Virus record (IMG/VR): IMGVR_UViG_3300027971_000043
Span: 17,731-81,730 of that record
DNA length: 64,000 bases
From: a virus
Direction: 5' to 3' (one strand)
The position numbers and the translations under genes were made by a program. The notes under the pieces are model-generated. The model made no database searches. It saw only the letters and a list, made by a program, of their open reading frames with translations, and was not told the DNA's origin. Within the stretch, counting starts at the first letter, position 1; every line of letters begins with the position of its first letter. Of this stretch, positions 3,313 through 61,412 are shown in pieces.

Positions 3313-3322
3313 AACTTTTAGT

Positions 3323-3520
3323 TTACTTGGACTCCTCTCTATCGTCAACACCATCCTCATTAACATCTTTGAAGGCACCGGGATCGCGGGTAAAAATTTT
3401 CTTAGCCAGCATATAGCGTTCTTCAGCAGACATTTCTGTCCACATTTCTGTCTTACCTCTTGGCTTCCAAAGGATTAGAGCAACAACAATAAAGACAAAA
3501 AATAAAACGGGCCAGAACAT
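3323..3520 (-). CDS. small membrane-anchored protein (65 aa)
   Basis: N-terminal hydrophobic helix; TAATG coupling with upstream gene. Confidence 0.65.
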   Translation of the reverse strand: MFWPVLFFVFIVVALILWKPRGKTEMWTEMSAEERYMLAKKIFTRDPGAFKDVNEDGVDDREESK

Positions 3521-3750: not shown

Positions 3751-3899
3751 TATTTCTTCCCCTTGTTACCCCAGTTTGCTGCTCCAACTTTGCGACATCG
3801 AACAAGTGCACCACTGGCATAAGCGGATGGCCACACTTTGTAGCGAGCCTTTACCTTTTGAGTGCAAGCGTCGTTAGCTTTCTTTTTACCTAAAGGCAT
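3750..3899 (-). CDS. small basic phage protein (49 aa)
   Basis: MPLGK..DACTQKVKARYKVWPSAYASGALVRCRK, a conserved phage motif; ATG at 3899 lies 1 nt after the upstream stop. Confidence 0.8.
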   Translation of the reverse strand: MPLGKKKANDACTQKVKARYKVWPSAYASGALVRCRKVGAANWGNKGKK

Positions 3900-3900
3900 A

Positions 3901-4167
3901 TTAACAACTCCAAAGAACTTTTCGGGCCCAATAATTAGCTGACAGTTTCCCATCACCCCCTTTAATCCCACCACTCCTAGCACAATAACTCTTTCGCCTT
4001 TTGGCACTATGATGCTGAGTAAAATCTTTCATTGAGCTATCTCCAAAATGAATAATTCTTTCTTGCCCGCCAGAGCAAGCTTTGACAACTTTCTTCTTGC
4101 CCGGCCTCCACGACTTGCGCGGTTTGTTGCAGGGCATGTCGGCTTTGCTGGGCTTCCCTAGAGGCAT
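3901..4167 (-). CDS. small basic phage protein (88 aa)
   Basis: KKKVVKAC..IIHFGD..RRKSYCAR..KLSANYWA motif of a common phage family. Confidence 0.8.
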   Translation of the reverse strand: MPLGKPSKADMPCNKPRKSWRPGKKKVVKACSGGQERIIHFGDSSMKDFTQHHSAKRRKSYCARSGGIKGGDGKLSANYWARKVLWSC

Positions 4168-4728: not shown

Positions 4729-7700
4729 TTACTTTCTTTCTGGAAACAAGATACCCTCTTGATTTTTTTCAAGTAGAACATTTTGTAGGATAGGATTTTT
4801 TATCGTCTTGTTGACTTGCTGCATAAAGGTGATGAATTGGGGTCTACTCATTTTCTCCAGTTGAGGAATAAATGGAGCTAGGAAGTTCTCTATTACAGGC
4901 CCAGCACGTTGCATCCATTCGTACTTTTCGTCATTTGTTAACTCTCGGCTGATTTGGAAAAAGTCATCTGGTGTTAGAGTAACTCCATTGGCAGCGGCAT
5001 CTTTAATCAAATCCATCATGGCATAATTTTTTAACGGACCTGGATCCCAATCTAATGCATATCGGTTAGCTGCAAACAATGAGATTAATTTATCATGTAT
5101 TGCCTGTTGGCTACGCTCTCCGTTGTTATAAGCCATACCGTCCACTCCGACTGTAGTGAGACGCCGTAGAAATGGTACAGTATTTGACATTTGTGTCCTT
5201 ATATTCCCCCCTAAGAAATCAAGATCTGGTCTCCCAATTTTTGACGCAAAAGGTATTGAGGACATAAATACAGAAAGAAGATTTTCCTGATAGGGTCTTG
5301 CGCTGGGTGAACCCGTTAAGCCATTATAAGCCTGTTCAATATCTCTTGCCGTTGCATAACCGGGTATAAAGCTGGCAGTTATATTTCCCGCCAACTTTAC
5401 TGTTTTATCTATTATCATTTTTGGGTCTGTTCTTTGTGGGCCAGGCGAGGTTAGAGCCATGATTGACCTCAAACCACTTAAGAATCCTACGTCCAACATC
5501 GCCAAAGTTGTGACCATCCCAGCCGCTAGCGTACCCTCCAAAGCAGCTTCTACTTTCGATCTCTTGGAATATCTAACACTTTCAACATAAGAGGCAATAA
5601 GAGTAAGAACAGCTTGTATGCCTTGAGGGAAGAATTCAAAAGAAACAAATCTAGGTTTACCGCTTTTAAATGTGCCCAGCTGAATAGACTTTAACTTTCC
5701 TCCCGCCGCAAGAAATGCTTCTCTTTGTGTTGGATCTGCCGGTCCGTTTAAGTGGATGTTATTTTCTGGGTCATCTTCTCCCGACATCGCAGGTAAAAAT
5801 CTTAATCCAATAAGAAAAATTCCCATAAGACCAGTAAACATTTTACCCAACAATAAGTCATGTTCAATTGTTCCGGGAGTAGGGGGAGGCACAAAATATT
5901 TACTATCTTTTAATTTTCCGGCTGATCCTCTAATAAAACGAATCTGAGAAATGATGGGTAAAAACTTTAGCCCCTCATTTGCCAAGGCTGATCCTGTCCT
6001 CAAAAACTTAAGTAGAACTTTAAGTGCTTTAGCTTTTTCCCCAAGATCGTTTACAGTTCCAGCTAAAAGACCAATATAACCTTCAAAATTATTTGTAAAA
6101 GAAGTTTGGGCTGCCAACGTTTGAGCTCTTTTTGTGATTTCTTTTACGGCATCTTCGTCCGGTCTATTCTGAGCTATAATCTCTTCTACCCGTAAAGTCT
6201 GCTCAGTCGGAGTAAGACTAAACTCTTTTGCCTCTGCTGCGGCTTTTGCTTCTGCCCGGGATCTAGCTTCCGGAGACATGTTCAATAATCTGGCAACCTC
6301 GGCTTCAATCTCTTCCTGTGTCGTTAGTCCCTGGTCTATGGCTACATTAGTTGCCTCTAAGACCTCGGCCATTTTTTTAGTCGATACTTTTATCAAAGCA
6401 TCTCCAGCTTGCATAGCTCTTCCAAACCAAATGTAAGGACCTAGTAGACCGTATTTTTTACTAATAGCCTTGGGGTCGAGAGGTAGTGTGTACTCTTTTC
6501 CAAATGCTTTTATTGGGAGTTCTGGCCTAATAGAACTTTGTCCCTTTCTATAGGCTTCGGCTTGGTTTACGATCGCTTCAAAAGTATTAATGCCGCCATA
6601 CTCCTGATTCAACACGTCGGAAATATCGGAATAATTACCGCTTAACATTGTATTTAAAGCTGCTGCGTATGCTTTTCCTTTTGGAGAAAAGATTGCTTGA
6701 TTAAGAGAAGGAAGAGCTGAAAGATAAGCTTTGCCTAATGCTTTTTCTTGTTCTTTGTTGAGCGCAGCTCCAATGGCATACTTTACTCCTCCAGCCGCGG
6801 TTAACAGAAAAGCGTTAAGTTCGGCGTTTAATAACGATCCGAACGCGTTGATACCAACAGTTCCAACTGAACTTAGTAGACCTGCGGTTTGATAATTAAT
6901 TAACAAATCAGACCAAACAACGGGAGCAACAAACTTAATGTATTGATACATTTCATTGATTGCTTTTTGTCTTATCATTCCTTTTGGCAATACACTCAGG
7001 GCTTCAATTTTTTTATTAAGTTCTTTGCGTTGTTCCTGAGTCATCTCGGGAAGTCCGAGTTGCGAATGCATCTGAACAAAAACGTCATCATCAGAAAGGA
7101 CTCCAAGATTTGCAGACTCAATAAGCTTGTCTAAAGCAGATCGTATCTTTCGAGTTTTGCGCTCTTTCTTCTTTTCAAAATTTTCTTTGATTCGTTTTAA
7201 GGCGTCTTTTCTCTCGCTAGCAATAAGTTCAGTCATCCCTTCGCGAAGGAAGTCGAGAACTTCTTTCTTTTGAGCTTCATCAAGATTAGTATTCTCGGTT
7301 AGCAAAGCCCCCATTTTATTTTCAAAGTCCATGATATCGCCACGGCTGGCTCGGATAAGACTACGTAGATTTGTCTTAGGTCCCCCAATAGACTCCAAAG
7401 CCCTAACGGTTTGCTTGAGGCTAGACACAGCAAAGGGTCTTCCAAACGCTTCTTCAATAAACGGTTCGAGCCCGATTAACTCTTGCTCATTGTAGTTGTT
7501 TCGAAGCGATTCCCGAACGTTGTTGATAAACTCTTTAACTTCTGGATACTGTGCAATCCGATCTTTAAGAACTTCGGCTTCGGTAGGTTTAGGTAGAGGT
7601 TCAAATACAGGTTGTAGCCCACCCATTTCTTTTGTGCGTTGGGCAATCAATCTTCGAGTCCGCATTGCAAACTCTTCAAGAGCATCCTTAACTTTTGGTT

Positions 7701-10700
7701 GTTTCTGGAGGCGAGCTGCTTGTTTTTGTAAAGCGTCTGCGGAAGCTTCGGCCAGGGCTAATTCCGGAGGAAGATTATTTGGAACTATTACAGGTGCTTC
7801 TTGAGCGGCTTTTGCTTTTGCTTGAGCAACTCTTTGGATTGCTTCTCCTCGCGTGGACGGAGGAGGAATAACTTCAGCAGCCTGACCAACTCTAGTGCCA
7901 GCTTCTCTCGCTCTCGCTTCTCTTAATGCTTTAGCTTGGAAGAATTCAAGGGCATAGGTTAGGGCAGAGTCAAAATAAAGTTCCAACTTTCTTCTTACAT
8001 TTTCTTGATTCTTTGCATCACGCACAACGGGAGCCAACATCACCAACCGTTTGATCTCATCAGCTGAAGCGGCTGTCTCCCGCGGATTTTCTGAACGTTC
8101 AATGATTCCTAGAATGACTCTACCCAAAGCTCTGGACTGATCTGGATCAAGGCGAATGTCATCTCCACCCATACCCGGCTCGGGGGCCGCCGCAATATCA
8201 GCTCCAAGCCACTCCGTCAAACCCTTACTAACTTCTTCGCTTTCAAGATAATCCGATATCACCGCTTGAATCTGCGATAATGTTCCACCCTTTTTGTTTA
8301 GATCAACTAGTTTTCCAAGTTGATCCTGAACTGCTTGCAGATTATTTCCTTTTATGGTTTTCTTAGCAGTCGTAAATTTTTCAGCAGCTCTTCGATTCGC
8401 ATCTTTTAATGCCATAGCAATTTCGTCATTTTCCTCTGCGTAACCTTGTAGTTTGCCTTTAAGCGTCTTATCTATTTGACGATACACAAAAAGTTTTGCT
8501 CTTTCGGGATTATCAAAAATTAACGAATCCAGTCCACTCCACATTTGAACTGCCCTTCCAGCTTCAGTCCCATACTTTTTAGCTGCAATCAGTGCAACAT
8601 CTATCAATTGACTTTCAGCAAATTTATCTGTTTTTGCTTTTTCTCTAAGCGTGTTCATTAGTTCAAAAGCAACTCCTGTTTGCACAGGAAGAGAAGCGTT
8701 AATATTTCCAGCTAAAAATTGTTGCAATGATTTATCAAATCCATTTTCTGCTATGTAATTTCTAGCGTCTTCTATCTGTTGTTCTTGTGATACGGATGTG
8801 TAATACCATTCATTTAAAAGCCTATCTTTATCCGCTCCTTCAGGAATTTTATCTAAAACATTTAAGGCAATATTTTTTACGGCTTGGCTTTCACGAATCT
8901 CGGGGGCTGGTACCGGTATGACTCGAGTAATTTCAGGTGGTGGAACTGGAATTGAAACTGTTTCCCCGTCTAAAGAAACTGAAGTTACAATCGGTTTTTC
9001 AGTCACAATCTCTGGGGCTGGAGTTAGCCGACGAGCATAATTGTCATATCCAGCCCTACCGATAGCCGCAATCAGAGCACCGCGATTTTTGTAAGTATAA
9101 TTCCTGCCGTCAAAAATAATTTCGTTACGATCCTCAAACATCTTGGCAACCGTATTTGCCACAGCTCCGGCCGAAGTCTTAGCTGTCGTTGGATAAGATG
9201 GGTAGAATCCAATCTTTACATTGTATCGGCTGTACTCAGAAGGTTCAACCAGATTGACTGGCTCAGTCGTGGCTATAAAAGCTACAGCTGGCAATGACTC
9301 ACCCGACTCTTCCATACCTTCCGCAATCTCAAGGGCTTTGTTAGCGATCCCGGGAAGGCTTGCACGTCCACCATCCATCACGGATTTAGTCGCGGCCCGG
9401 AATAAATTGCGCTCTTGATTGGTAATCATTCCGCGACGAGCTGCGACATCCAAGCCGTCAAGCCAGTCGTTCACGTCAACCGTCTTGAATAGATCGTCAG
9501 CTGCGGTGACTCCAAATACTCCGTCGGTTCGGCCTTCAAGATGATTCTCAATCATTCGATAGATTCGAAGATCGTAGGAGTCGAACTTGTTGGCTGGACG
9601 TGGCGATGTCGGGGAACGACCGGGTTCGGGCGCTGCAACCGGCCCTGGCGCTGAAGCGTCCACAAAATACTTAGAAGTCTTACGAAGATTAGAAATGGCA
9701 TCTTCGATTCCTTGACGCAACACCAAGCGATCCGTGGCTTGAGGAGCCAAACCCAACCCACGCTTGACCACAGTGGCCATGCTATCAAACCACACGCCGA
9801 GTCTGGCAAGAACGGACTTGGGTTCTTGACCGACAAGATCCTTAAGGCGTTGTGTCGCTCTGGCAATATCTTTTGGATCTACTGAAGTGACTTGTTCGGT
9901 AATACCACCTGTAAGATTTAGCTGCGATAATTGTCGGATACCTTCCATAGAAACCTGGTAAGAATCATTGGCCAAAGCTTTTATTTTTCCTTGAATAACA
10001 GGATCGGTAATGTCAGATCCAAGTTGAGAATTATAAAGCCTGGCAATAGCCAATCGAGTAGCTTGGCTCATACCGTCTCCAATGGCTGTTAGTTCTTCAA
10101 CTGGATCAAGTCCAAGTTCACGAAAATATCTGTACGTTTCAACGTGAATTGTCTCCTCCAACATAACTTTGGTTAAGTACGATTTAAAATCTTTTGGTGA
10201 TACCCGAGATTTACTAACTGCTAGTTTCTCGGGATTAATAATAATTGTGTCGGATTCATTATCGGCTCCAGCCTGAGCTGCTACGCTATGCTCCGCCATA
10301 GGGGATACCAAAACATTGTAAATACGAGGCTGACCTTTGGCGTCTTTGAAGGTGACCGTATTGTCTTTGTAGTTAGTTCCAAGAACGGAAGTTAGTTCCG
10401 TGTCCACAAACTTTTGTTGCTCGGCGGTCGCTTCGTTTGTTTCTCTAACCGGAGCCACAGCCTCTTCGGCTCGCAGACCTTCAAAGCCAGCACCAACAGT
10501 AGCGTCAAGCAACCGCAACTTGGCCCGCATACGACCGATAGTGTTCTGGTCAATCTCAGCCTGCGATTCGAGGAATACAATGTTGGGACGGCTGGCGCTG
10601 TCTACACGCCAGACACGATAGATAAGTTGAACCGCTTGAATCGCGCTGATCGGAGGAGATAGAATGATCATCTCTCGGGACTCGTCACCAAACTTGTCAT

Positions 10701-13700
10701 CCAGTTCGATTCCGGTTCCGCCCATTTCCTTGGTCGCAATTAGAACATCAGCCTCTCCCTCATTAAACGCAGCCATTGCTTGTTCCTTGGTCTGCTCTGA
10801 ACCAGTGTACATCCGGGCGATCTTGAGAGTCGGATCAAGCTTGGCGATTGCGGCTTCGAGTGACGCGGAAGTAGGATTAACTGTCTCGCCTTTAGAGTTT
10901 TCATCCGAAACAAATCCAACATATAGTACGGGTTTCTTGCCACGTTTGATTGCATCTACTGCTCGTTTAGCGGCTGCGTCAACTTTGTATTCTTCAAGCG
11001 CACGTTTCTGAGCTGCTGCCATTTGTCGCAAAGCCGAGATGTCCACGTTCTGTGTTCCACCATACATCGCCTTGATGTCCTCAAGCTGTTGCTTGATCTG
11101 ATTATCAAGAGGAACATCTTGGAACTCTATGTCGACCCCGTCCAGTTTGAGCGAGCGGGAACGCATGATTCCGTTCTTCGCCATTCCGTCGAGATAAGCC
11201 TCCAACCGATCCTGCATTTCGGTTTCAGTAACTCCTTCGGCCAATTGCCAATAGAATTTCTTTCCGCCCTTAAGAGCATATTTTTGGAATCCAAGACGAC
11301 TAATTAAAGCATCGGGCGATTCATTATCAAATATTCCAAGTCGGCCAAGCGACAGCAATTGATCCGGAGTTTCAAACGGAGTACCTGAGGCCATCAATGT
11401 GCGCCCTGCTTTGTTGGCAATGTCATCCATTAACACTGCCCAAGATCGTGTCTTCCCACTTTGAATAGCTTTGGATAGGTTACGGCCAGAGTGTTGCTCA
11501 TCCAAAAGAACAACAGTCTTGTCATCAATTAAAGGCAAAAGCTGTTCGAGATATCCAGAATTGTACGTGGTAACAAGCATCCGACCAGGAACAAACTCAA
11601 TTGGCAATCCCCTTCCGCTCTCGCCCTTGCCCCCACGAACCGCCAACGGAACGCCTAGAATTGTCGCATCCTTCTGAATCGATCCACCAATTTCTCCATC
11701 GTCCCAGTTCGGTGTAACCGCATCAGGAGCCGTTATATAAACAACCTTATATCCCTTGTTGAGATAGTAGGCTCCAGTCCCAAGCAACACTCGCGTCTTT
11801 CCAGTTCCCGGTCCGTTCGCCAAATAAAACGCCTTGTGCTTGGAGTTCTCGATTGTGGTAACAGCCGCGGCTACGTCCTGTGCTTGTTCTTTAGACAGAT
11901 TGGAAAGAACCTGTTGTCCCGCTGGAGCAAGAATCTTTTCGTTGAAAGATTTACCTAACTGGTTGCGGGGTTCGACGAAGGACTTGGGGATCGGGGTGCC
12001 ACGAGGGCGCTCAACTCCAGGTCTCCCGGTTGCGGCTGGCGGACGCTCAACAGTTCGTTCCACTGCTTTCCGCTCCGCTGGAACGGTTTCTTCAAGAACT
12101 CGCTTTGTGGTGGTAGCGCGCTCCGCTTCGAGCTCGGCGAGCCTTGCGCGAGCTTCCTCACGTCGATCAGCGGGCGTCTTGGCTTCAGGTCTTGGGGTTG
12201 GTAGTTGTTCTGGTTGTTCATATGTTCCTTCCTCGTTTATGGTTAATCCGCTGTCGCGCAGGATTTGGTCACTGACGCGAAGCAGGTTTGACCGGAAAGC
12301 AGCCGCAATTTTGTTCTTGGCTTCTCCCTCCGGCATGGCTTCCGAAGCCAGATAAGGCTCGGCAAGTTTGTTTAATGTGGCGACATAGGCATCGGCTTGT
12401 TTCTGTGAAATTGTTCCGTCCTCGGTAGATTGCCGAAGATTGGTATCAATGGCTTCAGTGAGTTCTGTGATGGAATCTGGGGTTAGTTTAGAAGCAGCTA
12501 CGCTTTCAATAAAGTTATCAAACGACCTTAACAGATCGCCTGATCGAGACGATTGAACTTCGCCAAGCAAAGTCTTGGCGGCAACTAACTCGGCATCATC
12601 AAAGAAATTATCGGCTTGCAACTGGCGGAACCGGTCAACATAAGGCTTGATCTGGTTGGCCGTAAGGTTACCTTCGCGTACAACTCCGGCCGGTTCCTCA
12701 ACAGCGCGAACCGGTAGTGTCCCAGCTCGTTGACTGTTTCGATAATTGTTTTCCAAGCCCTGAACAAACTTAGTTCTGACCGCGGGTTGAAGAGCGTTGA
12801 TGTTATCAATTGTTGTTCCGATCTTGGCCGCTTCCGAAGCCACGTTTTTTACATCGCCAACCACGGCATCAAATGCCAGCTTCTCGGCATCCGTGGCCAA
12901 AGAGTTTCGGAAAGGTTGCTTAAAGTTTTCGGCAAGGATGGCAAGTGCTTCTTGTCGTTGAGCCGCGGAAGGAACTTCGACTTGACCCTCCATTTGAAAA
13001 TCTGTTTCAGTCGCGTCGATCTGGTCGAGTGTCTCGTTGATTGCGCCGGCGACCGCTGGGTTAAGACCCTGTTCTTCCGCCAGTGTCTCGGCATCCACAG
13101 CCTGAGTCCGAAGCCCAGGAGTTTCCATGCTAACCGCCGCGCCAATTCCAACGCCAGCTCGCATGCGGGGAACAGCCTGACGAATGAAATCCCGAAGACG
13201 GCTATTGAAAATAGTGCTTAAGGAAAGATTGCCTTTACCTTGACGCAGTTCATACAGGAACGAATTGATTGTTCCGTTTGAAACTTCGTCTGCAATGTTA
13301 TACTTCTGGTAACCAGCCAACGACTTGCTCTGAAGGTAAGTGTTCTTACGTTTGATATAAGCCATCAAAGTCTCGGCAGGATTCATTATGTTTCGGCCGT
13401 TTTCATCAATCGCGCCAAGACTCTGGAGCAATTCAACCGTTGATGGGTTCTTTAGATTAAACACATCGCCTAGAGCATTTACATCATTCTCTCTGGGGTC
13501 GGGGGCTAGCTTCTGGAACTTCTGATAAGATGCTTGTTCGGGATTATTGATAGCCAAGACAACGTCAGGTCGGGCTTCTAGTTCGGGTGAAATCGCTCCG
13601 CTTTTGATTCCCGCATTAGTCTCTCGTTCAAACTGTCCGATCAAGCTGGCTACGCTTTGTTCTCCGCGAGCTCCGCGTTCCAACTCTCCCTGACCTTGCA

Positions 13701-15981
13701 TGGCCTGCAACTTGGCAAGCTGTTCTTCAAGGGCCGGAGTTTCTTCCAAAGGAGACTGCCTGATTTTGGTCTGCAAAGCTGTGATCTGATCGGAAATCTT
13801 TTTAGCCCTGAACTCAGCGGGTCTTTCCTCGGCAACCAACTCTTGTTGCTGGGCAAGACGAGTTTCCAACGCAGTCTGAATTTGGCTTGGTCCCAGATGC
13901 CTCGAAGCGATGGCCTCAATCTCTGGCATCGATCCAGCCGTGTCTAATAAATCGCTGATCTCATCGACCTGATCTTGTGTGATCCCTGGTTTGTTCTCGA
14001 TCTCCTGCAAGATTGCATCCTTCTCATCCTGCATAATCTCCGCAGGATCTTCCTTACCGATCCAATTACCCTCGGCATCCTTGACTCCTAGAACCTGATA
14101 TCGTGATCCGTCCTCACTAAGCTTTCCGTAAACGCGACCCTGACTTTCAAGCCAGTCAATCTTAGCTTGATTGGCGGGGGTGGAAGAAAGGTCAATCGAG
14201 GTAACTCCCTTTTGAAATACGTTGACTAACTCATTGAATGCCCCAATAACTTCCTCATCAGTTTCTGGAACTCCAGCTTCTATGGTCGGAGGAACTCCCA
14301 TTTGTTTTGGCTGTACTTGAGCCTGAGCTTCTGCCACTTTGCTTGAAAGCAAAGATTCAATCGCGCCTTGCTTAGCATTGTTAATCGCTTCATCGGCTAC
14401 CGCCGTAGTTTCGGGAGCAGTTGTTGGGTCAAGAGAAGCCCGAACATTAACAGCGTCAAAAAGAGCTTGGGCTTGAGGACTGTTCAGAGATTCTCGAAGC
14501 TCAACAATTTGTTGCATTTTCTGATCTTCTGGAATCTTGGGGTCGTTCTTAATTCCAGTGACAGTTTGACGGAGAGTATCCGCAAACTTGTCATTCGCCA
14601 TCTGATTAAGTCTTGCTCTACGACCAACAAACCCTTCGGCCAATACCATGCCAAGACCGATACCGCCGGAAGCGGCTAAACTTTGCGGAATCTGAGCAAT
14701 AGGATCTTGTCCACGGGCAATCGCGTCAATCACATCGGATGAAGTTTCTCCGAGAGTTGTTCCAATGACCTTAGCCGTTCCCTGAACAACCGGGGCAAAC
14801 GCAGGAAGTTTGGTCTCAAGAGCTTTAGCAACCATGTGATTGGTCAAGGCGCGATCGGCCACGTCTTCCAATCTATTGCCGGCTTCCTCGGAAAGGGCTA
14901 ATACGCCGGCCTCACTCACAATCGAAGCTAACCGTTGTCCCACGTTCAAATTACGCGGGTCTTGGTCGAGGGATTGGGAGGCTCCGACAACTGCATAAGT
15001 TGCGCCCTTGGACAGAGTCGTGGGAACTTTAATTGTCTGCCCCGCAATATCTGCGGCTTTGCCCAACAAGCCTGTTGCCCCAGCGCCAACTGCCATAAAT
15101 TGACCCAAAGAACCGGTGGCCAATCCAGCCAAAGTAGATGGCATGTAATTCTTTTGAATTACATCGTTGATCCCATTGGTCAAAGCGGCTCGACGGGCTA
15201 CTTGGTCAGGATCATTTTCGTCAACAATAATGTCTCCGATGGAAACAAAAGGAACGAAAGCATCACCGGATTGAACTGCAAAATTACGGAGTCCCGCGGT
15301 ACCAAGTTTCTTTGTCTTGTCACTCTGAAGGTCTTTGTAGTATTCCTGTGCTCGGGCCAGGTTCATTCCAACTTTCGGAGTATTCCACGCGCCAAGCCCG
15401 AACTCCATCGCGGGAGCTTGATCCTTAGGGGCGATAGATTTCCCAGCAGTTAATTCATCGGAATAGAGAGCACCAAGCTCAAGGGCTTTCGCAGCTTGGG
15501 TAGAGTCCTTGATTGTTCCAATGTAATTGCGGGATGCCAAACTTTCCTGCATGGCTTTGGCATCTTCATTCGTAATCCCGAGTCCGCTCTGCAAATAAGA
15601 TCCAATAACTTTACCCACACCTCCGACAGCAATTTTGGTAAGCCCTAACCAGTCATTGTTTTTTTCGGCATCAAGGGTGGCTTGGGAAGTAGATTTTATG
15701 TAATCATTAACATTCTTCTGAGCATCCTGCCACGACTGTGTATTAAAAGGAAGTTTACCTTCCTTAAAACGGGTGGCTGTTCCGAGTAAAAGATCGTTGG
15801 CTTTCGGGTTATCCCGAAGCTCCATAAGTTGGCTGGCTTGAGCCAAAGCCGAAGAAGGCTGGCTTAGTATAGAATCAAGTTCGTCCTGTTGCTGGGTCGG
15901 GGGTTGTCCAAGAATATCTCCGACAATGCTGTCAAGGCTATTAGGCAAACCAGCATCCAAAGGGGAAAGGGGATCTGCCAT
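4729..15981 (-). CDS. giant polyvalent internal virion protein (3750 aa) with strawberry-notch/DarB-type SF2 helicase
   Basis: FYLANGPGTGKT (Walker A), LLDEQH, SGTPF, GTGIELDD, QLIYRVWR; an EETIH zincin-like motif; position among ejection proteins. Confidence 0.85.
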   Translation of the reverse strand: MADPLSPLDAGLPNSLDSIVGDILGQPPTQQQDELDSILSQPSSALAQASQLMELRDNPKANDLLLGTATRFKEGKLPFNTQSWQDAQKNVNDYIKSTSQATLDAEKNNDWLGLTKIAVGGVGKVIGSYLQSGLGITNEDAKAMQESLASRNYIGTIKDSTQAAKALELGALYSDELTAGKSIAPKDQAPAMEFGLGAWNTPKVGMNLARAQEYYKDLQSDKTKKLGTAGLRNFAVQSGDAFVPFVSIGDIIVDENDPDQVARRAALTNGINDVIQKNYMPSTLAGLATGSLGQFMAVGAGATGLLGKAADIAGQTIKVPTTLSKGATYAVVGASQSLDQDPRNLNVGQRLASIVSEAGVLALSEEAGNRLEDVADRALTNHMVAKALETKLPAFAPVVQGTAKVIGTTLGETSSDVIDAIARGQDPIAQIPQSLAASGGIGLGMVLAEGFVGRRARLNQMANDKFADTLRQTVTGIKNDPKIPEDQKMQQIVELRESLNSPQAQALFDAVNVRASLDPTTAPETTAVADEAINNAKQGAIESLLSSKVAEAQAQVQPKQMGVPPTIEAGVPETDEEVIGAFNELVNVFQKGVTSIDLSSTPANQAKIDWLESQGRVYGKLSEDGSRYQVLGVKDAEGNWIGKEDPAEIMQDEKDAILQEIENKPGITQDQVDEISDLLDTAGSMPEIEAIASRHLGPSQIQTALETRLAQQQELVAEERPAEFRAKKISDQITALQTKIRQSPLEETPALEEQLAKLQAMQGQGELERGARGEQSVASLIGQFERETNAGIKSGAISPELEARPDVVLAINNPEQASYQKFQKLAPDPRENDVNALGDVFNLKNPSTVELLQSLGAIDENGRNIMNPAETLMAYIKRKNTYLQSKSLAGYQKYNIADEVSNGTINSFLYELRQGKGNLSLSTIFNSRLRDFIRQAVPRMRAGVGIGAAVSMETPGLRTQAVDAETLAEEQGLNPAVAGAINETLDQIDATETDFQMEGQVEVPSAAQRQEALAILAENFKQPFRNSLATDAEKLAFDAVVGDVKNVASEAAKIGTTIDNINALQPAVRTKFVQGLENNYRNSQRAGTLPVRAVEEPAGVVREGNLTANQIKPYVDRFRQLQADNFFDDAELVAAKTLLGEVQSSRSGDLLRSFDNFIESVAASKLTPDSITELTEAIDTNLRQSTEDGTISQKQADAYVATLNKLAEPYLASEAMPEGEAKNKIAAAFRSNLLRVSDQILRDSGLTINEEGTYEQPEQLPTPRPEAKTPADRREEARARLAELEAERATTTKRVLEETVPAERKAVERTVERPPAATGRPGVERPRGTPIPKSFVEPRNQLGKSFNEKILAPAGQQVLSNLSKEQAQDVAAAVTTIENSKHKAFYLANGPGTGKTRVLLGTGAYYLNKGYKVVYITAPDAVTPNWDDGEIGGSIQKDATILGVPLAVRGGKGESGRGLPIEFVPGRMLVTTYNSGYLEQLLPLIDDKTVVLLDEQHSGRNLSKAIQSGKTRSWAVLMDDIANKAGRTLMASGTPFETPDQLLSLGRLGIFDNESPDALISRLGFQKYALKGGKKFYWQLAEGVTETEMQDRLEAYLDGMAKNGIMRSRSLKLDGVDIEFQDVPLDNQIKQQLEDIKAMYGGTQNVDISALRQMAAAQKRALEEYKVDAAAKRAVDAIKRGKKPVLYVGFVSDENSKGETVNPTSASLEAAIAKLDPTLKIARMYTGSEQTKEQAMAAFNEGEADVLIATKEMGGTGIELDDKFGDESREMIILSPPISAIQAVQLIYRVWRVDSASRPNIVFLESQAEIDQNTIGRMRAKLRLLDATVGAGFEGLRAEEAVAPVRETNEATAEQQKFVDTELTSVLGTNYKDNTVTFKDAKGQPRIYNVLVSPMAEHSVAAQAGADNESDTIIINPEKLAVSKSRVSPKDFKSYLTKVMLEETIHVETYRYFRELGLDPVEELTAIGDGMSQATRLAIARLYNSQLGSDITDPVIQGKIKALANDSYQVSMEGIRQLSQLNLTGGITEQVTSVDPKDIARATQRLKDLVGQEPKSVLARLGVWFDSMATVVKRGLGLAPQATDRLVLRQGIEDAISNLRKTSKYFVDASAPGPVAAPEPGRSPTSPRPANKFDSYDLRIYRMIENHLEGRTDGVFGVTAADDLFKTVDVNDWLDGLDVAARRGMITNQERNLFRAATKSVMDGGRASLPGIANKALEIAEGMEESGESLPAVAFIATTEPVNLVEPSEYSRYNVKIGFYPSYPTTAKTSAGAVANTVAKMFEDRNEIIFDGRNYTYKNRGALIAAIGRAGYDNYARRLTPAPEIVTEKPIVTSVSLDGETVSIPVPPPEITRVIPVPAPEIRESQAVKNIALNVLDKIPEGADKDRLLNEWYYTSVSQEQQIEDARNYIAENGFDKSLQQFLAGNINASLPVQTGVAFELMNTLREKAKTDKFAESQLIDVALIAAKKYGTEAGRAVQMWSGLDSLIFDNPERAKLFVYRQIDKTLKGKLQGYAEENDEIAMALKDANRRAAEKFTTAKKTIKGNNLQAVQDQLGKLVDLNKKGGTLSQIQAVISDYLESEEVSKGLTEWLGADIAAAPEPGMGGDDIRLDPDQSRALGRVILGIIERSENPRETAASADEIKRLVMLAPVVRDAKNQENVRRKLELYFDSALTYALEFFQAKALREARAREAGTRVGQAAEVIPPPSTRGEAIQRVAQAKAKAAQEAPVIVPNNLPPELALAEASADALQKQAARLQKQPKVKDALEEFAMRTRRLIAQRTKEMGGLQPVFEPLPKPTEAEVLKDRIAQYPEVKEFINNVRESLRNNYNEQELIGLEPFIEEAFGRPFAVSSLKQTVRALESIGGPKTNLRSLIRASRGDIMDFENKMGALLTENTNLDEAQKKEVLDFLREGMTELIASERKDALKRIKENFEKKKERKTRKIRSALDKLIESANLGVLSDDDVFVQMHSQLGLPEMTQEQRKELNKKIEALSVLPKGMIRQKAINEMYQYIKFVAPVVWSDLLINYQTAGLLSSVGTVGINAFGSLLNAELNAFLLTAAGGVKYAIGAALNKEQEKALGKAYLSALPSLNQAIFSPKGKAYAAALNTMLSGNYSDISDVLNQEYGGINTFEAIVNQAEAYRKGQSSIRPELPIKAFGKEYTLPLDPKAISKKYGLLGPYIWFGRAMQAGDALIKVSTKKMAEVLEATNVAIDQGLTTQEEIEAEVARLLNMSPEARSRAEAKAAAEAKEFSLTPTEQTLRVEEIIAQNRPDEDAVKEITKRAQTLAAQTSFTNNFEGYIGLLAGTVNDLGEKAKALKVLLKFLRTGSALANEGLKFLPIISQIRFIRGSAGKLKDSKYFVPPPTPGTIEHDLLLGKMFTGLMGIFLIGLRFLPAMSGEDDPENNIHLNGPADPTQREAFLAAGGKLKSIQLGTFKSGKPRFVSFEFFPQGIQAVLTLIASYVESVRYSKRSKVEAALEGTLAAGMVTTLAMLDVGFLSGLRSIMALTSPGPQRTDPKMIIDKTVKLAGNITASFIPGYATARDIEQAYNGLTGSPSARPYQENLLSVFMSSIPFASKIGRPDLDFLGGNIRTQMSNTVPFLRRLTTVGVDGMAYNNGERSQQAIHDKLISLFAANRYALDWDPGPLKNYAMMDLIKDAAANGVTLTPDDFFQISRELTNDEKYEWMQRAGPVIENFLAPFIPQLEKMSRPQFITFMQQVNKTIKNPILQNVLLEKNQEGILFPERK

Positions 15982-32261: not shown

Positions 32262-32272
32262 AAAGTACTCCT

Positions 32273-32300
32273 ATTGTGTGGTCTTATTTTTATTTGTCAA
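32273..32300 (-). promoter_or_regulatory. promoter TTGACA-N16-CACAAT
   Basis: 11 nt before ATG 32261 with AGGAG in between. Confidence 0.6.
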
Positions 32301-32512
32301 CTATGCTTGCCAAAAATCTTTGACCAAAAGAATTCGGCAAAGGTCGAAATCATGAATGTCATTACTGCCACGACTCCATATCCCATGTGAATATGCTTCT
32401 CCACCTTACCGATTCGTTGGTCGTGCTTATCACGATCGTCAAGCAAGGAATCGAGCTTTTCGTCCATGCGGGCGGTACGCTCAAGAAGGGTGACTAGATG
32501 GTCATTTTCCAT
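32297..32512 (-). CDS. coiled-coil plus C-terminal TM protein (XhlA/holin-like architecture)
   Basis: LLERTARMDEKLD..RIGKVEK followed by a hydrophobic helix. Confidence 0.65.
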   Translation of the reverse strand: MENDHLVTLLERTARMDEKLDSLLDDRDKHDQRIGKVEKHIHMGYGVVAVMTFMISTFAEFFWSKIFGKHS

Positions 32513-32765
32513 GACTAAATATCCTATCTAGGGTTGGGTATAACCGTGATTTCATCTTATTGGCAGTATAGCTCTCAACACCCAACAAAGGCAAGAATAG
32601 CTCGAAACAAAGTTCGAACGATTCCCGCTCATAACAGGCTTTGGGCCTGGCGGGTTTCTTGCCGGTGTCAAGATCCTGGAGATCGTTCCAGGCTTGCTTG
32701 ACAACCGCCAAGATGAGTTTATCCACGGCTTTACGCCATTTCGTTCTTCGACATTCCTTTTTCAA
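32502..32765 (-). CDS. hypothetical protein (87 aa)
   Basis: LILAVVKQAWNDL resembles a common small phage family; start uncertain. Confidence 0.5.
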   Translation of the reverse strand: MKKECRRTKWRKAVDKLILAVVKQAWNDLQDLDTGKKPARPKACYERESFELCFELFLPLLGVESYTANKMKSRLYPTLDRIFSHGK

Positions 32766-32979
32766 CGGCTTGAACCATACCCATATCTTCCTCAGGCATT
32801 TCGGTTTCAGTTTCTTCTTCGACTTCTTTGCCGGGGGAAACTGCTACACCTTCAACTGCGGAGAGATACATGGTAGGTCCTTTAAAAAAGCCGCTGGCCA
32901 TGAAGTCGAACGAATCGCCTTCAGCAACACCTTCTGGAGGTGTAAAGCCTTTGGGTACGGGAAAAGAGATATTGTCCAT
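32731..32979 (-). CDS. small acidic protein (82 aa)
   Basis: E-rich ORF directly after the capsid-operon hairpin. Confidence 0.7.
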   Translation of the reverse strand: MDNISFPVPKGFTPPEGVAEGDSFDFMASGFFKGPTMYLSAVEGVAVSPGKEVEEETETEMPEEDMGMVQAVEKGMSKNEMA

Positions 32980-33005
32980 AAGATTAGTCTTTCTTGAAAG
33001 AGTAT

Positions 33006-33036
33006 GATCCCCCGGGGGATAGAACCCCGGGGGACC
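33006..33036 (-). terminator. GC-rich hairpin after capsid/decoration genes
   Basis: TCCCCCGGGG-loop-CCCCGGGGGA; only a weak U tract. Confidence 0.6.
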
Positions 33037-33042
33037 AATTAA

Positions 33043-33315: not shown

Positions 33316-34731
33316 TTAGCTAACGTAGTCAAGGCTGATGGCAGGCCGTGTGTGCAGAACGACATAGCCGTACTGCGGGAACACGGGCCGAGCGCCACTG
33401 GCCAGCACTCCGCGAAAATATCCGACATTGCCGTCCGGATTAAATGCGCGGTCAAGGATGTTAACCCATTTGAACTCACCACGGTAGTTCTGAGCGTTGA
33501 ATCCCATTTTGCTGTCAACCGAGATCGCGTTAGGAACCACAGAGCGCATAACATCTTGATGGAAGATGTAGCTGACTTCATAGGTAGCCGTCTCGTAAGC
33601 AGGGTTGATGTTGTACGCCGTACCCTTGGTCGTGGTCTCCCTGCGGAAGGGGAACACGCGGATAAGTGCGTCGTTAGTCGTATCAAACACGGCGAACCGG
33701 GGAGGATACGGATCGATTGAATGGTAGAAACCACCGTAGGAACGCTCAATACCGAGAGGAGTGAGCAATTCATTCGGCTTGGCATACCGGAAGTCCTGGC
33801 GAATGTCAGCATTCAACCGGATCAGGTTTTCGCTGGTTTCAGCACCGCAGATCAACATGAACACCGGAGCGCCGTTTTCACGGCCCATGGCGTTAGTTCC
33901 CGCGCCGTCGCGGATAAGTTTCATGTAGAGCCGCTTCAGAATGCCCTGAGTCAACTGACTCTGTGGGAGAGCATTGGCAGCAAACGCGCCCGAGTTACAA
34001 GTTCCGGTACCAGTGGTAACGGCATTGTAAACGCCAACCAAGTCGGTGGCGCTGATGCTGAAGGAATTCGTTCCAGTCGAGTTGACAGGAAGAATTCCGA
34101 TGGTGGAAGCGCTGGGGAGGACGAGGTTACCTTCAGCTGCAACCTGTTCGGTGTACAACTGGCGATAACGATCCTGCCAAACCAAGGAGGTCGACTCAGT
34201 GAGGACGTCCATGATGTTGGACAGCTGTTCCCGACGTTTCACTGCGAAGCGCAAGTCTTCGAGAGCGATGTCAGGGGAGTCAACTGATGCCCATTGCAAG
34301 CGGTACTGACGAAGCTTTTGACCGAACGAAGCGTTGGTCAAAGGCTGGGGCAGTGCGTTACCAGCAGTGGACGAAGGCGAGCTAGAAGACACCGGAGGAG
34401 TCGTTCCGCCAGAGATCGTCTGAGTATACGGATTAAATCCAGTATAGGTCTGATCAATAGGGTTCGAGCCAAGGGTCCGCCAGTTATAACCAGCGTCAGC
34501 TGTGATATCACCGGAGGTATAACCGTTAGCAGTGGAGGCTGCAATTGCCCGGGAGGGGTAGAAACGCTCGAAAGTAACCGAGCTGATCACATCGCCCATC
34601 TCCTCGGGGAAGGTTTCTTGCTTGGTGAGCTTGAGCCAAGCGGAAGTGTCAATCGTCCGGCGATAAATTTCCGGTCCGATACGACCTGCTTCTTTAACAA
34701 GAAGCTGCTCAATAGAGTACGTAGTAGCCAT
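33316..34731 (-). CDS. major capsid protein (471 aa)
   Basis: Follows portal and scaffold; size; C-ending codon bias; own promoter and downstream hairpin. Confidence 0.8.
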   Translation of the reverse strand: MATTYSIEQLLVKEAGRIGPEIYRRTIDTSAWLKLTKQETFPEEMGDVISSVTFERFYPSRAIAASTANGYTSGDITADAGYNWRTLGSNPIDQTYTGFNPYTQTISGGTTPPVSSSSPSSTAGNALPQPLTNASFGQKLRQYRLQWASVDSPDIALEDLRFAVKRREQLSNIMDVLTESTSLVWQDRYRQLYTEQVAAEGNLVLPSASTIGILPVNSTGTNSFSISATDLVGVYNAVTTGTGTCNSGAFAANALPQSQLTQGILKRLYMKLIRDGAGTNAMGRENGAPVFMLICGAETSENLIRLNADIRQDFRYAKPNELLTPLGIERSYGGFYHSIDPYPPRFAVFDTTNDALIRVFPFRRETTTKGTAYNINPAYETATYEVSYIFHQDVMRSVVPNAISVDSKMGFNAQNYRGEFKWVNILDRAFNPDGNVGYFRGVLASGARPVFPQYGYVVLHTRPAISLDYVS

Positions 34732-34744
34732 ATTAGTATCAATT

Positions 34745-34955
34745 TCCTTTCATCCTTCCCCCAGCTCGCGCTAAGGGTCGGTTATGATTTGTAACAACAA
34801 TGCCAGTTCCTATCGGAACTATCCATCGTCGCCACTGTCAAAACTTTTCCCTGGCGGCATCCCAGAGCTTTTAATGCCCGAATTCTGCTAGACCGTTTCA
34901 ATTTTTATAGGTCTTGTTCGGCAAGGGTCTCAATCTTTATACCTGCACCGAACTA
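34745..34955 (-). ncRNA. candidate structured 5' leader RNA of the capsid gene
   Basis: Five to six successive hairpins, two with near-identical 15-nt loops. Confidence 0.5.
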
Positions 34956-34959
34956 GTTA

Positions 34960-34987
34960 AAAGTATCAACCGGATAGAACGTGTCAA
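34960..34987 (-). promoter_or_regulatory. capsid promoter TTGACA-N16-TACTTT
   Basis: Immediately upstream of the structured leader. Confidence 0.6.
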
Positions 34988-35001
34988 TACTTTATGCAAA
35001 T

Positions 35002-36231
35002 TTATTTTAAGCCACGTTCCAAAGCATCCAAGAAGTTAAGATCGGCTGGCATTTCAGCAGCTGAACCTTTAGATCTTCCAGAAGATGGGCTAACGGCGCT
35101 AAGCTCTTTAGCAAGGTTTTCAAGCTCTGTAATTCTTGCTTGAGACTTGCTTACATAGTCTTGGAATACATTCATAACAACTGGCATAGCCGCCGCGCTA
35201 AAGGTTAATTTGGCTTTTGAACGGGGGTCGAGTTCGGTATTTTCAATATCCATAGCCTGCTTCTGAATGCTCTGAATGGTGTTGTTCCACTGTTCATTTC
35301 CCTCAATAGGGCGTAAAAGAGCGTTTTCTTTTTGCATGTTTTCCCATTCAGTCTGGTAAGCGGCTTCTATTTCGGCTTGTGTTCTCTTTTGAAAAGCTTC
35401 ATGTTGCTGTCTTTCTTCGGATTCAATCAACTGAAGAACAGTATTAACGTCCTTTGTTAAAATGTCTCTCCGAGCAAACACTTTGTGAAGGTCTTCGGCT
35501 TTGGTTCGGACGGCAAGCGAATCGACTGGGTCAAAGTTGCTGGTGGCTTCTTTAAGCATGGCTCTTCGCTTGGCCGGGTCAGTTTCTGCCATTGCTACAT
35601 AAAGATTGCGCGGATCAACGTTTTCGTAAAGAGCGGCAATCTCAGCAACTTCTTTTTGCAAATTCGTTAACGGTTCAGTGACGGCTTGTTTATATTCTCG
35701 GGTAGACTCAAGTCTGGAAAACTTTAACTCGTTTTCGTACTCATCCCTTTCAGCCTTAAGAGTATCTAATTGACTCTGCAAATTTGCCTGTTCAACGGAA
35801 GTATTAGAAGAGTCAGTCATTTTTGTTTCCAACTCTTTCAATTTTGTTCGGGCATCTCGCAAGTCTTTTGTAAGACGCGCCCAAGCAGTTTGAGCTTCAG
35901 GTTTTAAATTGTCGGGAGTTTTAATATCTAAGTCATCAGCTGCATCAGTTTTAGCCTGAGAAACAATTTCTTCTTTACCAGTCAACCGTTTTGTCAATAC
36001 GTCCAGGGGATTAGTTGTGGTTGAAGCATCCGACTTTTGGAGCGTAACAACTTCCTTACTTTTTGATGGTTCGGGAGCTACAGCAGCAACGGGTGTAGTT
36101 TCCGCAGCCACTGGTTTATCGATGGACTCAAATCCTTTATCCAAAGCATCGGCAAAAGATACAAAATTATCTCCTGACGGCGCGGGGGTTGATGCTGGTG
36201 CTTCCGGTGTTGCGGTGGCTGTTTCACTCAT
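35002..36231 (-). CDS. capsid scaffolding protein (409 aa)
   Basis: Acidic P/A-rich N-terminus, long coiled coil, located between portal and capsid. Confidence 0.75.
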   Translation of the reverse strand: MSETATATPEAPASTPAPSGDNFVSFADALDKGFESIDKPVAAETTPVAAVAPEPSKSKEVVTLQKSDASTTTNPLDVLTKRLTGKEEIVSQAKTDAADDLDIKTPDNLKPEAQTAWARLTKDLRDARTKLKELETKMTDSSNTSVEQANLQSQLDTLKAERDEYENELKFSRLESTREYKQAVTEPLTNLQKEVAEIAALYENVDPRNLYVAMAETDPAKRRAMLKEATSNFDPVDSLAVRTKAEDLHKVFARRDILTKDVNTVLQLIESEERQQHEAFQKRTQAEIEAAYQTEWENMQKENALLRPIEGNEQWNNTIQSIQKQAMDIENTELDPRSKAKLTFSAAAMPVVMNVFQDYVSKSQARITELENLAKELSAVSPSSGRSKGSAAEMPADLNFLDALERGLK

Positions 36232-44108: not shown

Positions 44109-44288
44109 ATGAAGAAGGGGAGACGTTCCGGCATGGTGCGGCGCGAGAAGCGTCGACAGGTTAAGTGTTCCTTGCCGCGTGAAACACCGGACGTCCTCCG
44201 TCGACTTGTATATCTCTTGAGGGATATATTTCATTTTCAAGTTCAAACACCGACGCAAGTGAAAGGTATATGGATCAAGACAAAATAG
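44109..44288 (+). CDS. small basic hypothetical protein (59 aa)
   Basis: Hand-translated MKKGRRSGMVRREKRR...; fills the intergenic gap. Confidence 0.4.
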   Translation: MKKGRRSGMVRREKRRQVKCSLPRETPDVLRRLVYLLRDIFHFQVQTPTQVKGIWIKTK

Positions 44289-56578: not shown

Positions 56579-57055
56579 ATGAGCGACACATACCTTCAAG
56601 ACTTTGGCTTGCTACGCAAGCAGGCCAATGCACGGCAGGTTAATGACCCTATGTCCAGTGCTGGTCGTTGGGATGACCTACAACTTGACCTACGCAAACC
56701 CCATATCCCGAAGCCTCGTCGGGACAATGTCCCCGCTAACCGCAGCTTGACTGTGGGCGGTGTAACGATTGGCCTCAAGGCTAACGTGAGTGGCGAGGTG
56801 ACTACGGCCTTGGGCTTTGTATCCCGCGGGGCTTACAAGCACAAGTTGGTTACCCCCAAGGCTCATACCTACCGCAGGGCTATGACCGAGGCTGGCAAGC
56901 CAGACCAGAGGCTTTGGGTTGAGCCGCGAGAGCCCAAGTATATGTCCATCCGAGATGGTATCAGATTCCATATCAGGAAGGTTCGGTTCGGTAGGTCTCC
57001 CGCCCGCAGTTTGGAAGCTGTGCGGTTGCTGTGGCCTTTGAGGAACTCCCGATGA
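56579..57055 (+). CDS. basic hypothetical protein (158 aa)
   Basis: AAGGAG RBS; ATGA coupling downstream. Confidence 0.7.
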   Translation: MSDTYLQDFGLLRKQANARQVNDPMSSAGRWDDLQLDLRKPHIPKPRRDNVPANRSLTVGGVTIGLKANVSGEVTTALGFVSRGAYKHKLVTPKAHTYRRAMTEAGKPDQRLWVEPREPKYMSIRDGIRFHIRKVRFGRSPARSLEAVRLLWPLRNSR

Positions 57056-57742: not shown

Positions 57743-58089
57743 GCGACGCTTACATTCAACTCAACGGAGTCGAGTACTACGGCAAGCTGGTGAAAGGAGG
57801 AGTCCGAAACCACCACCCTATGTCGGAGTATGTCGGCAAGCGGGCGATTGATGTCTCCAAGCTACCCTCGGACGATAGCTGGACTCACTGGTATCTCTTC
57901 GAATCCGAGATGCCATTGCCCAACTTCTATGACTCTACATTCGTTCACTCGCTGGACTATGCGAGCTGGATAGATGTAGACAGGGATGACTGCGAAGCAC
58001 CTGGACAGATGTTCAGACGCAGAGCTTACATCTCAAAGATGGGTCAGTGGAAGATGGTCATCACTCAAAGTGGAGGACGTGACATATGA
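57739..58089 (+). CDS. hypothetical protein (116 aa)
   Basis: ATG 57739 after GAGGTG; ATGA overlaps. Confidence 0.65.
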   Translation: MSDAYIQLNGVEYYGKLVKGGVRNHHPMSEYVGKRAIDVSKLPSDDSWTHWYLFESEMPLPNFYDSTFVHSLDYASWIDVDRDDCEAPGQMFRRRAYISKMGQWKMVITQSGGRDI

Positions 58090-58370
58090 GAGGTAGACCT
58101 ATCGATCTCAAACACGTCGTGACCAATGCCAGCCAAGCTTACTATGGTCGCAGACTGAATAAGAAAGACTGGCAAAAGAACGTCAAGATGGCGAACCGCC
58201 AGAGCCGAGCCACTATCGCGCTCAAGCGGAAAGAAGGCTTGGAATATCAGTATGCGTTGACTGACATCCATCGGGCGATCGTCAAGAAAGCTATGATGAC
58301 CCCCGACCAAGCTTATCAACGAAACAAGGTAACCAAGAAGCTAGGGCTTGCTTGGGTTATGTGCGGATGA
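58086..58370 (+). CDS. basic hypothetical protein (94 aa)
   Basis: GGAGG RBS. Confidence 0.65.
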   Translation: MRGRPIDLKHVVTNASQAYYGRRLNKKDWQKNVKMANRQSRATIALKRKEGLEYQYALTDIHRAIVKKAMMTPDQAYQRNKVTKKLGLAWVMCG

Positions 58371-60978: not shown

Positions 60979-61203
60979 ATGAAGAAACCATTACTTATTA
61001 CATTACTTATTACAGTCGAGCAAGGACTCGTACATGGGTACAGACTTCCCAGGGGAGTCGATGTTCTTGTTGTTGACTTAGATACTGCAAAGCACGAAGG
61101 GCAAGAAACAAAAGCTAGGCGTTGGCTCAGGAGAGTATCAGACGGTTCTTCCCCAGAAACAACATCCGAAGAGATTGGTTGGGGAGAGTGGGAAAGATTA
61201 TGA
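60979..61203 (+). CDS. hypothetical protein (74 aa)
   Basis: AAGGAGG RBS. Confidence 0.65.
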   Translation: MKKPLLITLLITVEQGLVHGYRLPRGVDVLVVDLDTAKHEGQETKARRWLRRVSDGSSPETTSEEIGWGEWERL

Positions 61204-61412
61204 GATTCTTCTACCACTTCAACAAACCTTTGACGCAACGACGCAAAGATATCTGGTGGACAATCCATTACCAGAACCAATGCGTCCCCATCAAAGGCTT
61301 TGACTGTCGTGTGGCTACACACGATCGAAAACGCAAGAAGCAACCACTCGCAGTTGTATGGGGCGATGCCAGTAGCATCGTCATTCAGAACAACCGCGCA
61401 ATCATTACATAA
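61200..61412 (+). CDS. conserved phage hypothetical protein (70 aa)
   Basis: MRFFYHFNKP..WTIHY..C..KQPLAVVWG. Confidence 0.65.
   Translation: MRFFYHFNKPLTQRRKDIWWTIHYQNQCVPIKGFDCRVATHDRKRKKQPLAVVWGDASSIVIQNNRAIIT

Follow-up and report, generated by a model that had tools for sequence, protein, structure and literature searches.

A structured and conserved RNA leader between the promoter and the candidate major capsid gene in a group of uncultured freshwater phages

Tailed phages make more capsid protein than any other of their proteins, and several described systems are close enough to the locus reported here to serve as references. In phage T7, gene 10 has a promoter-leader in front of it and the T-phi hairpin behind it, and the ompA leader of E. 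coli represents the 5'-terminal stabiliser hairpin type. Translational operators of phages include the leader pseudoknot of T4 gene 32, the sites of T4 RegA, the mom leader on which Mu Com acts and the coat-protein hairpin of MS2. The put RNAs of HK022 are two promoter-proximal stem-loops which make RNA polymerase resistant to terminators. Dedicated RNA control of the capsid message of a tailed phage is, to our knowledge, essentially undescribed, and we know of no major capsid gene with an RNA operator such as the one considered below; a full-text literature search also returned no description of such a leader or of a capsid-gene RNA operator. The locus analysed here lies in a 64,000-nucleotide stretch of viral DNA (hereafter the window), which is contained in a virus record of 81,730 bp rated as complete. 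It resembles ompA and T7 gene 10 in having its own promoter directly before the capsid gene, a hairpin at the extreme 5' end, a strong and open ribosome-binding site, and a stable downstream hairpin that closes the unit. The features of the locus are as follows, in the direction of transcription.

35002 to 36231, minus strand: upstream ORF of 409 aa, putative scaffold gene, with its stop codon 14 nt before the -35 hexamer
34960 to 34987, minus strand: promoter with the -35 hexamer TTGACA (34987-34982), a 16-nt spacer and the extended -10 element TG-A-TACTTT (34968-34960)
34916 to 34953, minus strand: hairpin H1, with a 12/11-nt stem, one bulged C and the 15-nt loop TATAAAGATTGAGAC (34941-34927)
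34890 to 34914, minus strand: hairpin H2, with the 15-nt loop TATAAAAATTGAAAC (34909-34895)
34845 to 34880, minus strand: core module, with CGGGCA, an A-rich linker and the stem CTCTGG (34867-34862)/CCAGGG (34854-34849)
34781 to 34844, minus strand: 3' domain, in which the helix GTTTTG/CATAAC (34844-34839 with 34786-34781) encloses a long hairpin (34835-34791)
34758 to 34777, minus strand: small GCGA-tetraloop hairpin that directly precedes the ribosome-binding site
34732 to 34757, minus strand: purine-rich ribosome-binding region with GAAAGGA (34751-34745)
33316 to 34731, minus strand: major capsid protein gene of 471 aa, an HK97-fold candidate from Foldseek matches of the predicted model
33005 to 33037, minus strand: very stable hairpin of 13 bp, closed by the loop TTCTATC and located downstream of both the capsid gene and the 83-aa ORF after it

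The non-coding gap between the 409-aa and the 471-aa ORFs is 270 nt long (34732-35001, minus strand) and comprises a TTGACA/extended -10 promoter followed by about 220 nt of leader. The genes around it are ordered as TerL, a 769-aa ORF, a 96-aa ORF, the 409-aa ORF and then the 471-aa capsid gene, where TerL is a 578-aa large terminase (phrog_2, E 2.3e-10), the 769-aa ORF is likely the portal gene, and the 409-aa ORF, which has no family match in Pfam or PHROGs, is likely the scaffold gene. The 471-aa protein also has no match in Pfam or PHROGs, and a profile of 24 capsids searched against the PDB gave chance matches only (E ≥0.15). Since its AlphaFold model is weak (pLDDT 55.4), the assignment of the fold rests on low-scoring but consistent Foldseek matches, of which almost all those listed are HK97-fold capsid or encapsulin shell proteins (with one exception), the best being to phage N4 (E 4e-3, prob 0.87). 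With this moderate support we accept the 471-aa ORF as the capsid gene. A preliminary description of the window, made from the letters alone, had taken the capsid leader as the only long leader of the structural module, and this holds when ORFs of at least 90 aa are counted; the other gaps of the module, 3017-4166 and 32262-33042, are occupied by small ORFs. Elsewhere in the window, a 3750-aa ORF (4729-15981, minus strand) shows only a weak match to a P-loop NTPase (PF13872, E 3e-4). N4-like phages package a giant protein, and this ORF, taken together with the N4 and N4-like capsid fold matches, may reflect a distant kinship with them.

A capsid-protein search of IMG/VR returned 22 loci with 72-99% identity, and a distant-capsid profile added 65 further loci with identity down to about 38%. 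A long promoter-plus-leader stretch precedes the capsid gene in all 22 close and all 65 distant relatives, and its length in the close ones is 258-278 nt (22 of 22). The phage group comprises more than 530 capsid homologues. Neither the leader region (blastn) nor the capsid (tblastn) matched any of 50,697 GenBank phage records, and of the 68 pattern matches that a capsid profile produced in 185,579 prokaryote species genomes, none is a relative. The leaders sort into five classes, named A to E. Class A, that of the window, has twin hairpins with the loop UAUAAAGAUUGAGAY, and class B has twin hairpins with the loop UAUAAAAAYGGAAGY, on stems in which 13 of the 23 predicted pairs are compensated; within each class both loops carry the same class-specific letters, that is U10/A14 in class A and G10/G14 in class B. 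Classes C, D and E are without twin hairpins, yet the promoter and the 3' hairpin are retained in them. Class D (L042-L050, L086 and L087) and class C (L067-L083) have leaders of 200-260 nt behind TTGACA with other folds, and the hairpin loops CGGC and GCCG of class C may kiss. Moreover, conservation in the clade of the window is higher in the leader than in the genes on its two sides: across 15 class-A loci, identity with the window amounts to 80.7-95.9% in the leader, compared with 75.0-89.5% in the capsid coding sequence and 67.8-79.2% in the scaffold gene. A separate observation concerns five loci (L023, L027, L029, L034 and L059) in which the gap before the leader is enlarged to 358-572 nt, which may be explained by an intron or a homing element in the upstream gene. 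In L059, the stretch 2494-2739 (plus strand) before the class-E capsid promoter matches the group I intron family RF00028, scoring 48.6 bits (E 2.4e-09) where the gathering score is 50.

In the window, the gap folds with a minimum free energy of -83.5 kcal/mol (z = -4.42), a value that none of 200 shuffles attains. The class-A model has 55 pairs and was evaluated on 20 distinct sequences, in which 98.5% of the cells pair and 17 of the 55 pairs have changes on both sides, compared with 37-48% of cells pairing when the partners are slid by 1-3 columns. When shuffled, 0 of 500 alignments reach the observed value on four of the five measures, and 33 of 500 do so on the measure 'further pair types'. 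Covariation had been named in the preliminary description as a check of the structure, and compensatory changes are indeed present in the class-A helices. The two hairpins lie where it had placed them, at 34953-34916 and 34914-34890, with loops identical at 13 of 15 positions and closing pairs that are swapped, GG/CC in H1 vs CC/GG in H2, as it had also reported. H1 has 11 pairs, 4 with compensatory change and 97.3% of cells paired, and a near-invariant loop; H2 has 5 pairs, 3 with compensatory change and 99% of cells paired (both in the 20 class-A sequences). In the same sequences, the outer helix GUUUUG/CAUAAC of the 3' domain does not vary, and the long hairpin within it (34835-34791) has 16 pairs, of which 10 are compensated, with 96.7-97.5% of cells paired. 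Its cap is AGTTCC-GATA-GGAACT at 34821-34804, a hairpin already recognised from the letters and now seen to sit inside a covarying one; the GCGA-loop hairpin recognised before the ribosome-binding site was likewise recovered at 34777-34758, with 7 pairs, 100% pairing and one-sided changes only. One proposed hairpin, CGCCA/TGGCG, had to be given up: 79% of its cells pair in class A, no change is compensated, and three of the five pairs are each lost in 5-10 of the 20 sequences. Its supposed companion GGCAT/ATGCC never varies and overlaps the better-supported core stem CUCUGG/CCAGGG. The motif GAAAGGA shows no variation in 23 sequences, and the comparative model leaves the ribosome-binding site unpaired; since it is not visibly sequestered, no simple on/off switch is apparent. 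An upstream ORF starting from the invariant AUG of the core loop was considered and rejected, as its frame ends variably and crosses indels that are not multiples of three. Furthermore, when the alignment is read on the opposite strand, pairing falls from 98.5% to 86.4%, because 144 cells are G-U, and the structure therefore belongs to the capsid-sense RNA.

The core module is common to classes A, B and E and consists of CGGGCA, an A-rich linker, a 6-bp stem with the loop GAUGCCG, and GRAAC. Across 37 distinct sequences of these classes its stem is 100% paired in seven or so versions, and 5 of the 6 pairs are compensated; of 500 shuffles, none does as well as the real alignment on four of the five measures and 1 does on the fifth. 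Within class A the core never varies, and it stays constant across capsids that are only about 40-50% identical. The 7-nt loop (GATGCCG, 34861-34855 in the window) is invariant, and its bases 3-6 (UGCC) are complementary to an invariant upstream GGCA, which in the window gives a candidate loop-back of GGCA(T) at 34878-34874 with (A)TGCC in the loop. The four GGCA/UGCC pairs show no variation in the 37 sequences, so that in class A the loop, which probably folds back onto GGCA as a pseudoknot, offers invariant bases only. In class E (L052-L066, L072, L073 and L084) the twin hairpins are replaced by a 5' module about 50-90 nt upstream of the core. It combines an outer 3-bp helix with a 5-bp stem, which a linker separates from a 4-nt strand; bases 3-6 of its 7-nt loop pair back to an upstream GKYG. 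In 16 distinct sequences the three helices of this module are 100% paired with compensatory changes, and a loop-back pair is GC in 10 and UA in 6 of them; we regard this covariation as indirect support for the candidate pseudoknot in the core of the window.

The core is also specific to its place. The covariance model R1 finds a single site in the window (65.4 bits, E 2.6e-19). A scan of IMG/VR with the core pattern gave 74 stretches, 60 of which have a capsid homologue 111-152 nt downstream (60 of the 61 testable); the remaining ones are 13 stretches too short for the test and 1 chance match within a coding sequence. When the loop was left free, 42 stretches were found, namely 37 already known, all with the same loop, and 5 unrelated. 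A metagenome scan with the core gave at least 119 matches. Among the matches listed, 62 are without the stem and 57 have at least 5 of the 6 stem pairs; a capsid homologue lies downstream in at least 34 of these 57, 6 are too short and 17 have none, 14 of the latter being a single match that recurs within a long ORF. For the cores of classes C and D, homology with the R1 core was rejected, with no significant match in 19 loci, and because R1 misses these differing leaders, one mechanism shared by all classes is not established. With Rfam 15, the leader alone gave only two chance matches on the opposite strand (15.1 and 12.9 bits, E up to 10), the 4-kb context gave no match inside the leader, and in eight loci of other classes the sole matches were a group I intron in another place and a chance match to U7. 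No Rfam 15 family matches the leader, and the known-family match that the preliminary description had named as a refutation was thus not found. In the part of Fremin et al. (2023; PMC10690425) considered here, 8,495 structured-RNA candidates are predicted from IMG/VR, five of which lie upstream of a T7-type capsid domain; they resemble the present leader in their source and in being covarying motifs directly upstream of phage genes. This leader would not be expected in the domain-linked list of that study, because its capsid has no known domain, and the models of that study may include the motif.

The preliminary description had set the leader directly after a capsid promoter, and a TTGACA/extended -10 promoter is seen before H1. 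Every one of the 88 leaders, whose capsid identity falls as low as about 38%, has TTGAC[AT] 167-258 nt before the ATG, and the block TATTGACA..GTTC..CCGGTTGATAC at the promoter shows no variation in 23 sequences. The promoter is missed by a consensus scanner because its -10 element is weak, with only 3 of 6 consensus matches. The predicted transcription start is near 34953, the first base of H1. The region is also found in RNA, as that description had asked: metatranscriptome contigs from two lake-water runs of different studies cover the capsid gene and the leader of relatives at 85-95% identity; being assembled contigs, they cannot prove the start site or a single transcript, or exclude carry-over of DNA. 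One RNA-library contig of 781 nt joins the leader to the capsid coding sequence and ends at 34943, and a second ends at 34941. Both stop 10-12 nt from the predicted start, no loose contig end reaches further upstream, and these ends are weakly concordant with transcription from that position. Loose ends of the RNA contigs reveal a class-E leader, too. The zero RNA depth over the scaffold gene is uninformative, because this gene is only about 70% identical among relatives and the threshold was 85% likeness. By eye, class D shows a hairpin with a T run, resembling an intrinsic terminator, just upstream of TTGACA, which supports an independent transcription unit. Further promoter-like sites in the structural module (minus strand) lie at 38840-38812, 32300-32273 and 28437-28410, with TTGACA or TTGACT, 16-17-nt spacers and the -10 element CATACT or CACAAT; CATACT is also the -10-like hexamer of the class-B capsid promoters.

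At the other end, the hairpin at 33005-33037 is likely the 3' boundary or a stabiliser of the capsid transcript, and its U tract is poor. Comparable 3' hairpins, with a stem of at least 9 bp closing such a loop, occur in 62 of the 75 related loci tested, either 5-17 nt past the stop codon or behind one small ORF. The sequence of their stem varies among the classes, and the 7-nt loop is kept as TTCTATC, TTCAATC or TTACATC. On a stem of 12-13 bp, this loop resembles the T-arm of a tRNA or a minihelix; ARAGORN called no tRNA in the window.

The leader thus lies in the place of a 5' UTR, between promoter and start codon, on the coding strand and at a conserved position before one gene family, and it probably controls the stability of the capsid message or the efficiency of its translation. 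Invariant loops on covarying stems fit recognition by a partner, and specific recognition rather than mere stability is indicated by the invariant loops, the covarying stems, the matched loops and the constant core taken together. A classical riboswitch or attenuator is disfavoured, as the ribosome-binding site is open and no conserved terminator occurs inside the leader. Our main reading, to which we give about an even chance, is that of a cis-acting 5' UTR that would stabilise the capsid message and whose invariant loops would bind a trans-acting factor. Under it, a host RNA polymerase of the sigma-70 type would start at about 34953 from the promoter right after the scaffold gene, and the first 210 nt or so of the transcript would fold into a multi-domain RNA. 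Twin hairpins at the very 5' end would display the same 15-nt loop, the core hairpin loop would pair with the invariant upstream GGCA to form a pseudoknot, and the long hairpin with its GNRA-type cap, the small GNRA hairpin and the open ribosome-binding site would follow. Together with the very stable 3' hairpin, the leader would make a discrete, long-lived and heavily translated capsid message. The invariant loops and the core would be the docking site of the trans-acting factor, for which we think a phage-encoded late or assembly protein most likely; through it, capsid translation or the decay of the mRNA would be metered or timed. The preliminary description had spoken of a protein-binding RNA that regulates capsid/scaffold stoichiometry; a selected and structured sense-strand RNA after the promoter is supported, while a protein as the partner and the control of stoichiometry are possibilities only. 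A narrower and more tentative proposal is that the leader is a modular receptor for a late protein of the phage, possibly the capsid or scaffold protein itself, and would act as an autogenous capsid operator of a tailed dsDNA phage whose parts are exchanged as cassettes among phage lineages. Its modules would be the twin-loop hairpins (in sister phages, a second loop-back pseudoknot) and the invariant pseudoknot core, and free protein would feed back on capsid translation or on the life of the mRNA.

The first alternative to a factor-binding 5' UTR, possible but rather doubtful in our view, is a stabiliser and translation enhancer independent of any factor, in which a compact 5' fold, built from the terminal hairpins, the pseudoknot and GNRA contacts, would shield the capsid mRNA from 5'-end-dependent decay and present the ribosome-binding site open, with the loops conserved for intramolecular tertiary contacts. 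It agrees with the start of H1 at the predicted first transcribed base, with the retention of the GNRA-type loops GAUA and GCGA/GAGA, with the closure of the unit by a stable 3' hairpin and with the open ribosome-binding site. It agrees as well with the domain scans, which revealed no binding protein: a Pfam RNA-binding domain was not recognised in any of the 46 distinct window proteins examined, no RNA-binding match appeared among the 8 window proteins run against PHROGs (two of them without a Pfam scan), and the small basic proteins listed for the window, such as those at 44109-44288, 56579-57055, 58086-58370 and 61122-61412, are candidate partners only. However, a stabiliser of this kind needs neither twin 15-nt loops nor a core that is constant across capsids about 40-50% identical, and the concerted change of the loops from class A to class B looks like co-evolution with a partner, which could nevertheless be another part of the same RNA.

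It is improbable that the leader is a riboswitch-like sensor, whose pseudoknotted core would be the aptamer for a small molecule or an ion indicative of the condition of the infected cell, capsid expression being tuned accordingly. The extreme invariance of the core on a covarying stem is the usual signature of an aptamer, and the pseudoknot topology and the location in a 5' UTR point the same way, but an expression platform is not visible, with neither a conserved terminator nor a sequestered ribosome-binding site; no Rfam riboswitch matches at E up to 10, and the element is confined to one gene family of one phage group. We see just as little likelihood in an antiterminator of the HK022 put type, by which the promoter-proximal hairpins would let the polymerase read through the 3' hairpin into the tail genes. 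Two hairpins do follow immediately after the promoter, a strong hairpin behind the capsid unit is followed by about 32 kb of co-oriented late genes, and the RNA contig of one relative extends about 430 nt beyond 33300, past the window position of the 3' hairpin. Against this, such read-through is unnecessary, because TTGACA-type promoter-like sites exist further down the module (32300-32273 and 28437-28410), the leaders of classes C, D and E without twin hairpins keep promoter and 3' hairpin all the same, and the U tract of that hairpin is poor.

A separate non-coding RNA, be it a small, an assembly or a packaging RNA, which would be released by termination or processing and act in trans, is hardly likely either. 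A multi-domain fold with conserved loops would suit it, as would the terminator-like call at 34821-34804 and the hairpin with a U-rich run that class-B leaders have about 60 nt before the ATG. In class A, on the other hand, the tail of the 34821-34804 hairpin is not U-rich in most relatives and pairs into a covarying stem, and the RNA contig bridges leader and coding sequence. Nor do the loops have a complementary target: a search for their reverse complements with up to 2 mismatches, in about 3 kb of the same strand around 45 leaders, gave no conserved site and only sporadic matches in 6 loci at differing places. The nearest complementary site of the window (35598-35611, in the scaffold gene) has 3 mismatches, and its version is kept in one relative only; the loop motif itself has no other copy in the window at fewer than 2 mismatches. 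The standalone RNA that the preliminary description had offered as an alternative is thus weakened, because the leader has no conserved terminator and the 781-nt contig enters the capsid coding sequence. Least probable by far is an element at the DNA level, such as a replication or packaging site or an array for a DNA-binding regulator: repeated 15-mers and inverted repeats could be protein-binding DNA, but the compensatory changes preserve pairing and the 144 G-U cells pair on one strand only, which indicates a single-stranded sense RNA.

A large group of uncultured freshwater phages retains an elaborate leader before one gene. Its modular build, in which an invariant pseudoknot-type core is joined to interchangeable 5' modules and the paired loops change in concert, could offer a model of the way in which phages meter the synthesis of structural proteins. 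In addition, the core would be a compact and strongly constrained RNA fold suited to structural study, and it is a specific marker of the phage group in metagenomes and metatranscriptomes.

Among the known systems, the capsid leader differs from ompA and T7 gene 10 in being about 220 nt long and multi-domain, with invariant loops, a core of the pseudoknot type and twin loops. With T4 gene 32, the RegA sites, Mu Com and MS2 it shares a structured element in a phage mRNA leader, a sequence-specific single-stranded part and, probably, a pseudoknot; unlike in those operators, the element occupies the stretch from 220 to 13 nt before the start codon and leaves the ribosome-binding site uncovered, the comparison being one of architecture. 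The put RNAs of HK022 are alike in their two adjacent hairpins right after a promoter and ahead of a long operon, whereas the hairpins of the capsid leader have large conserved loops of 15 nt, are absent from sister leader classes, and are followed by other predicted promoters downstream.
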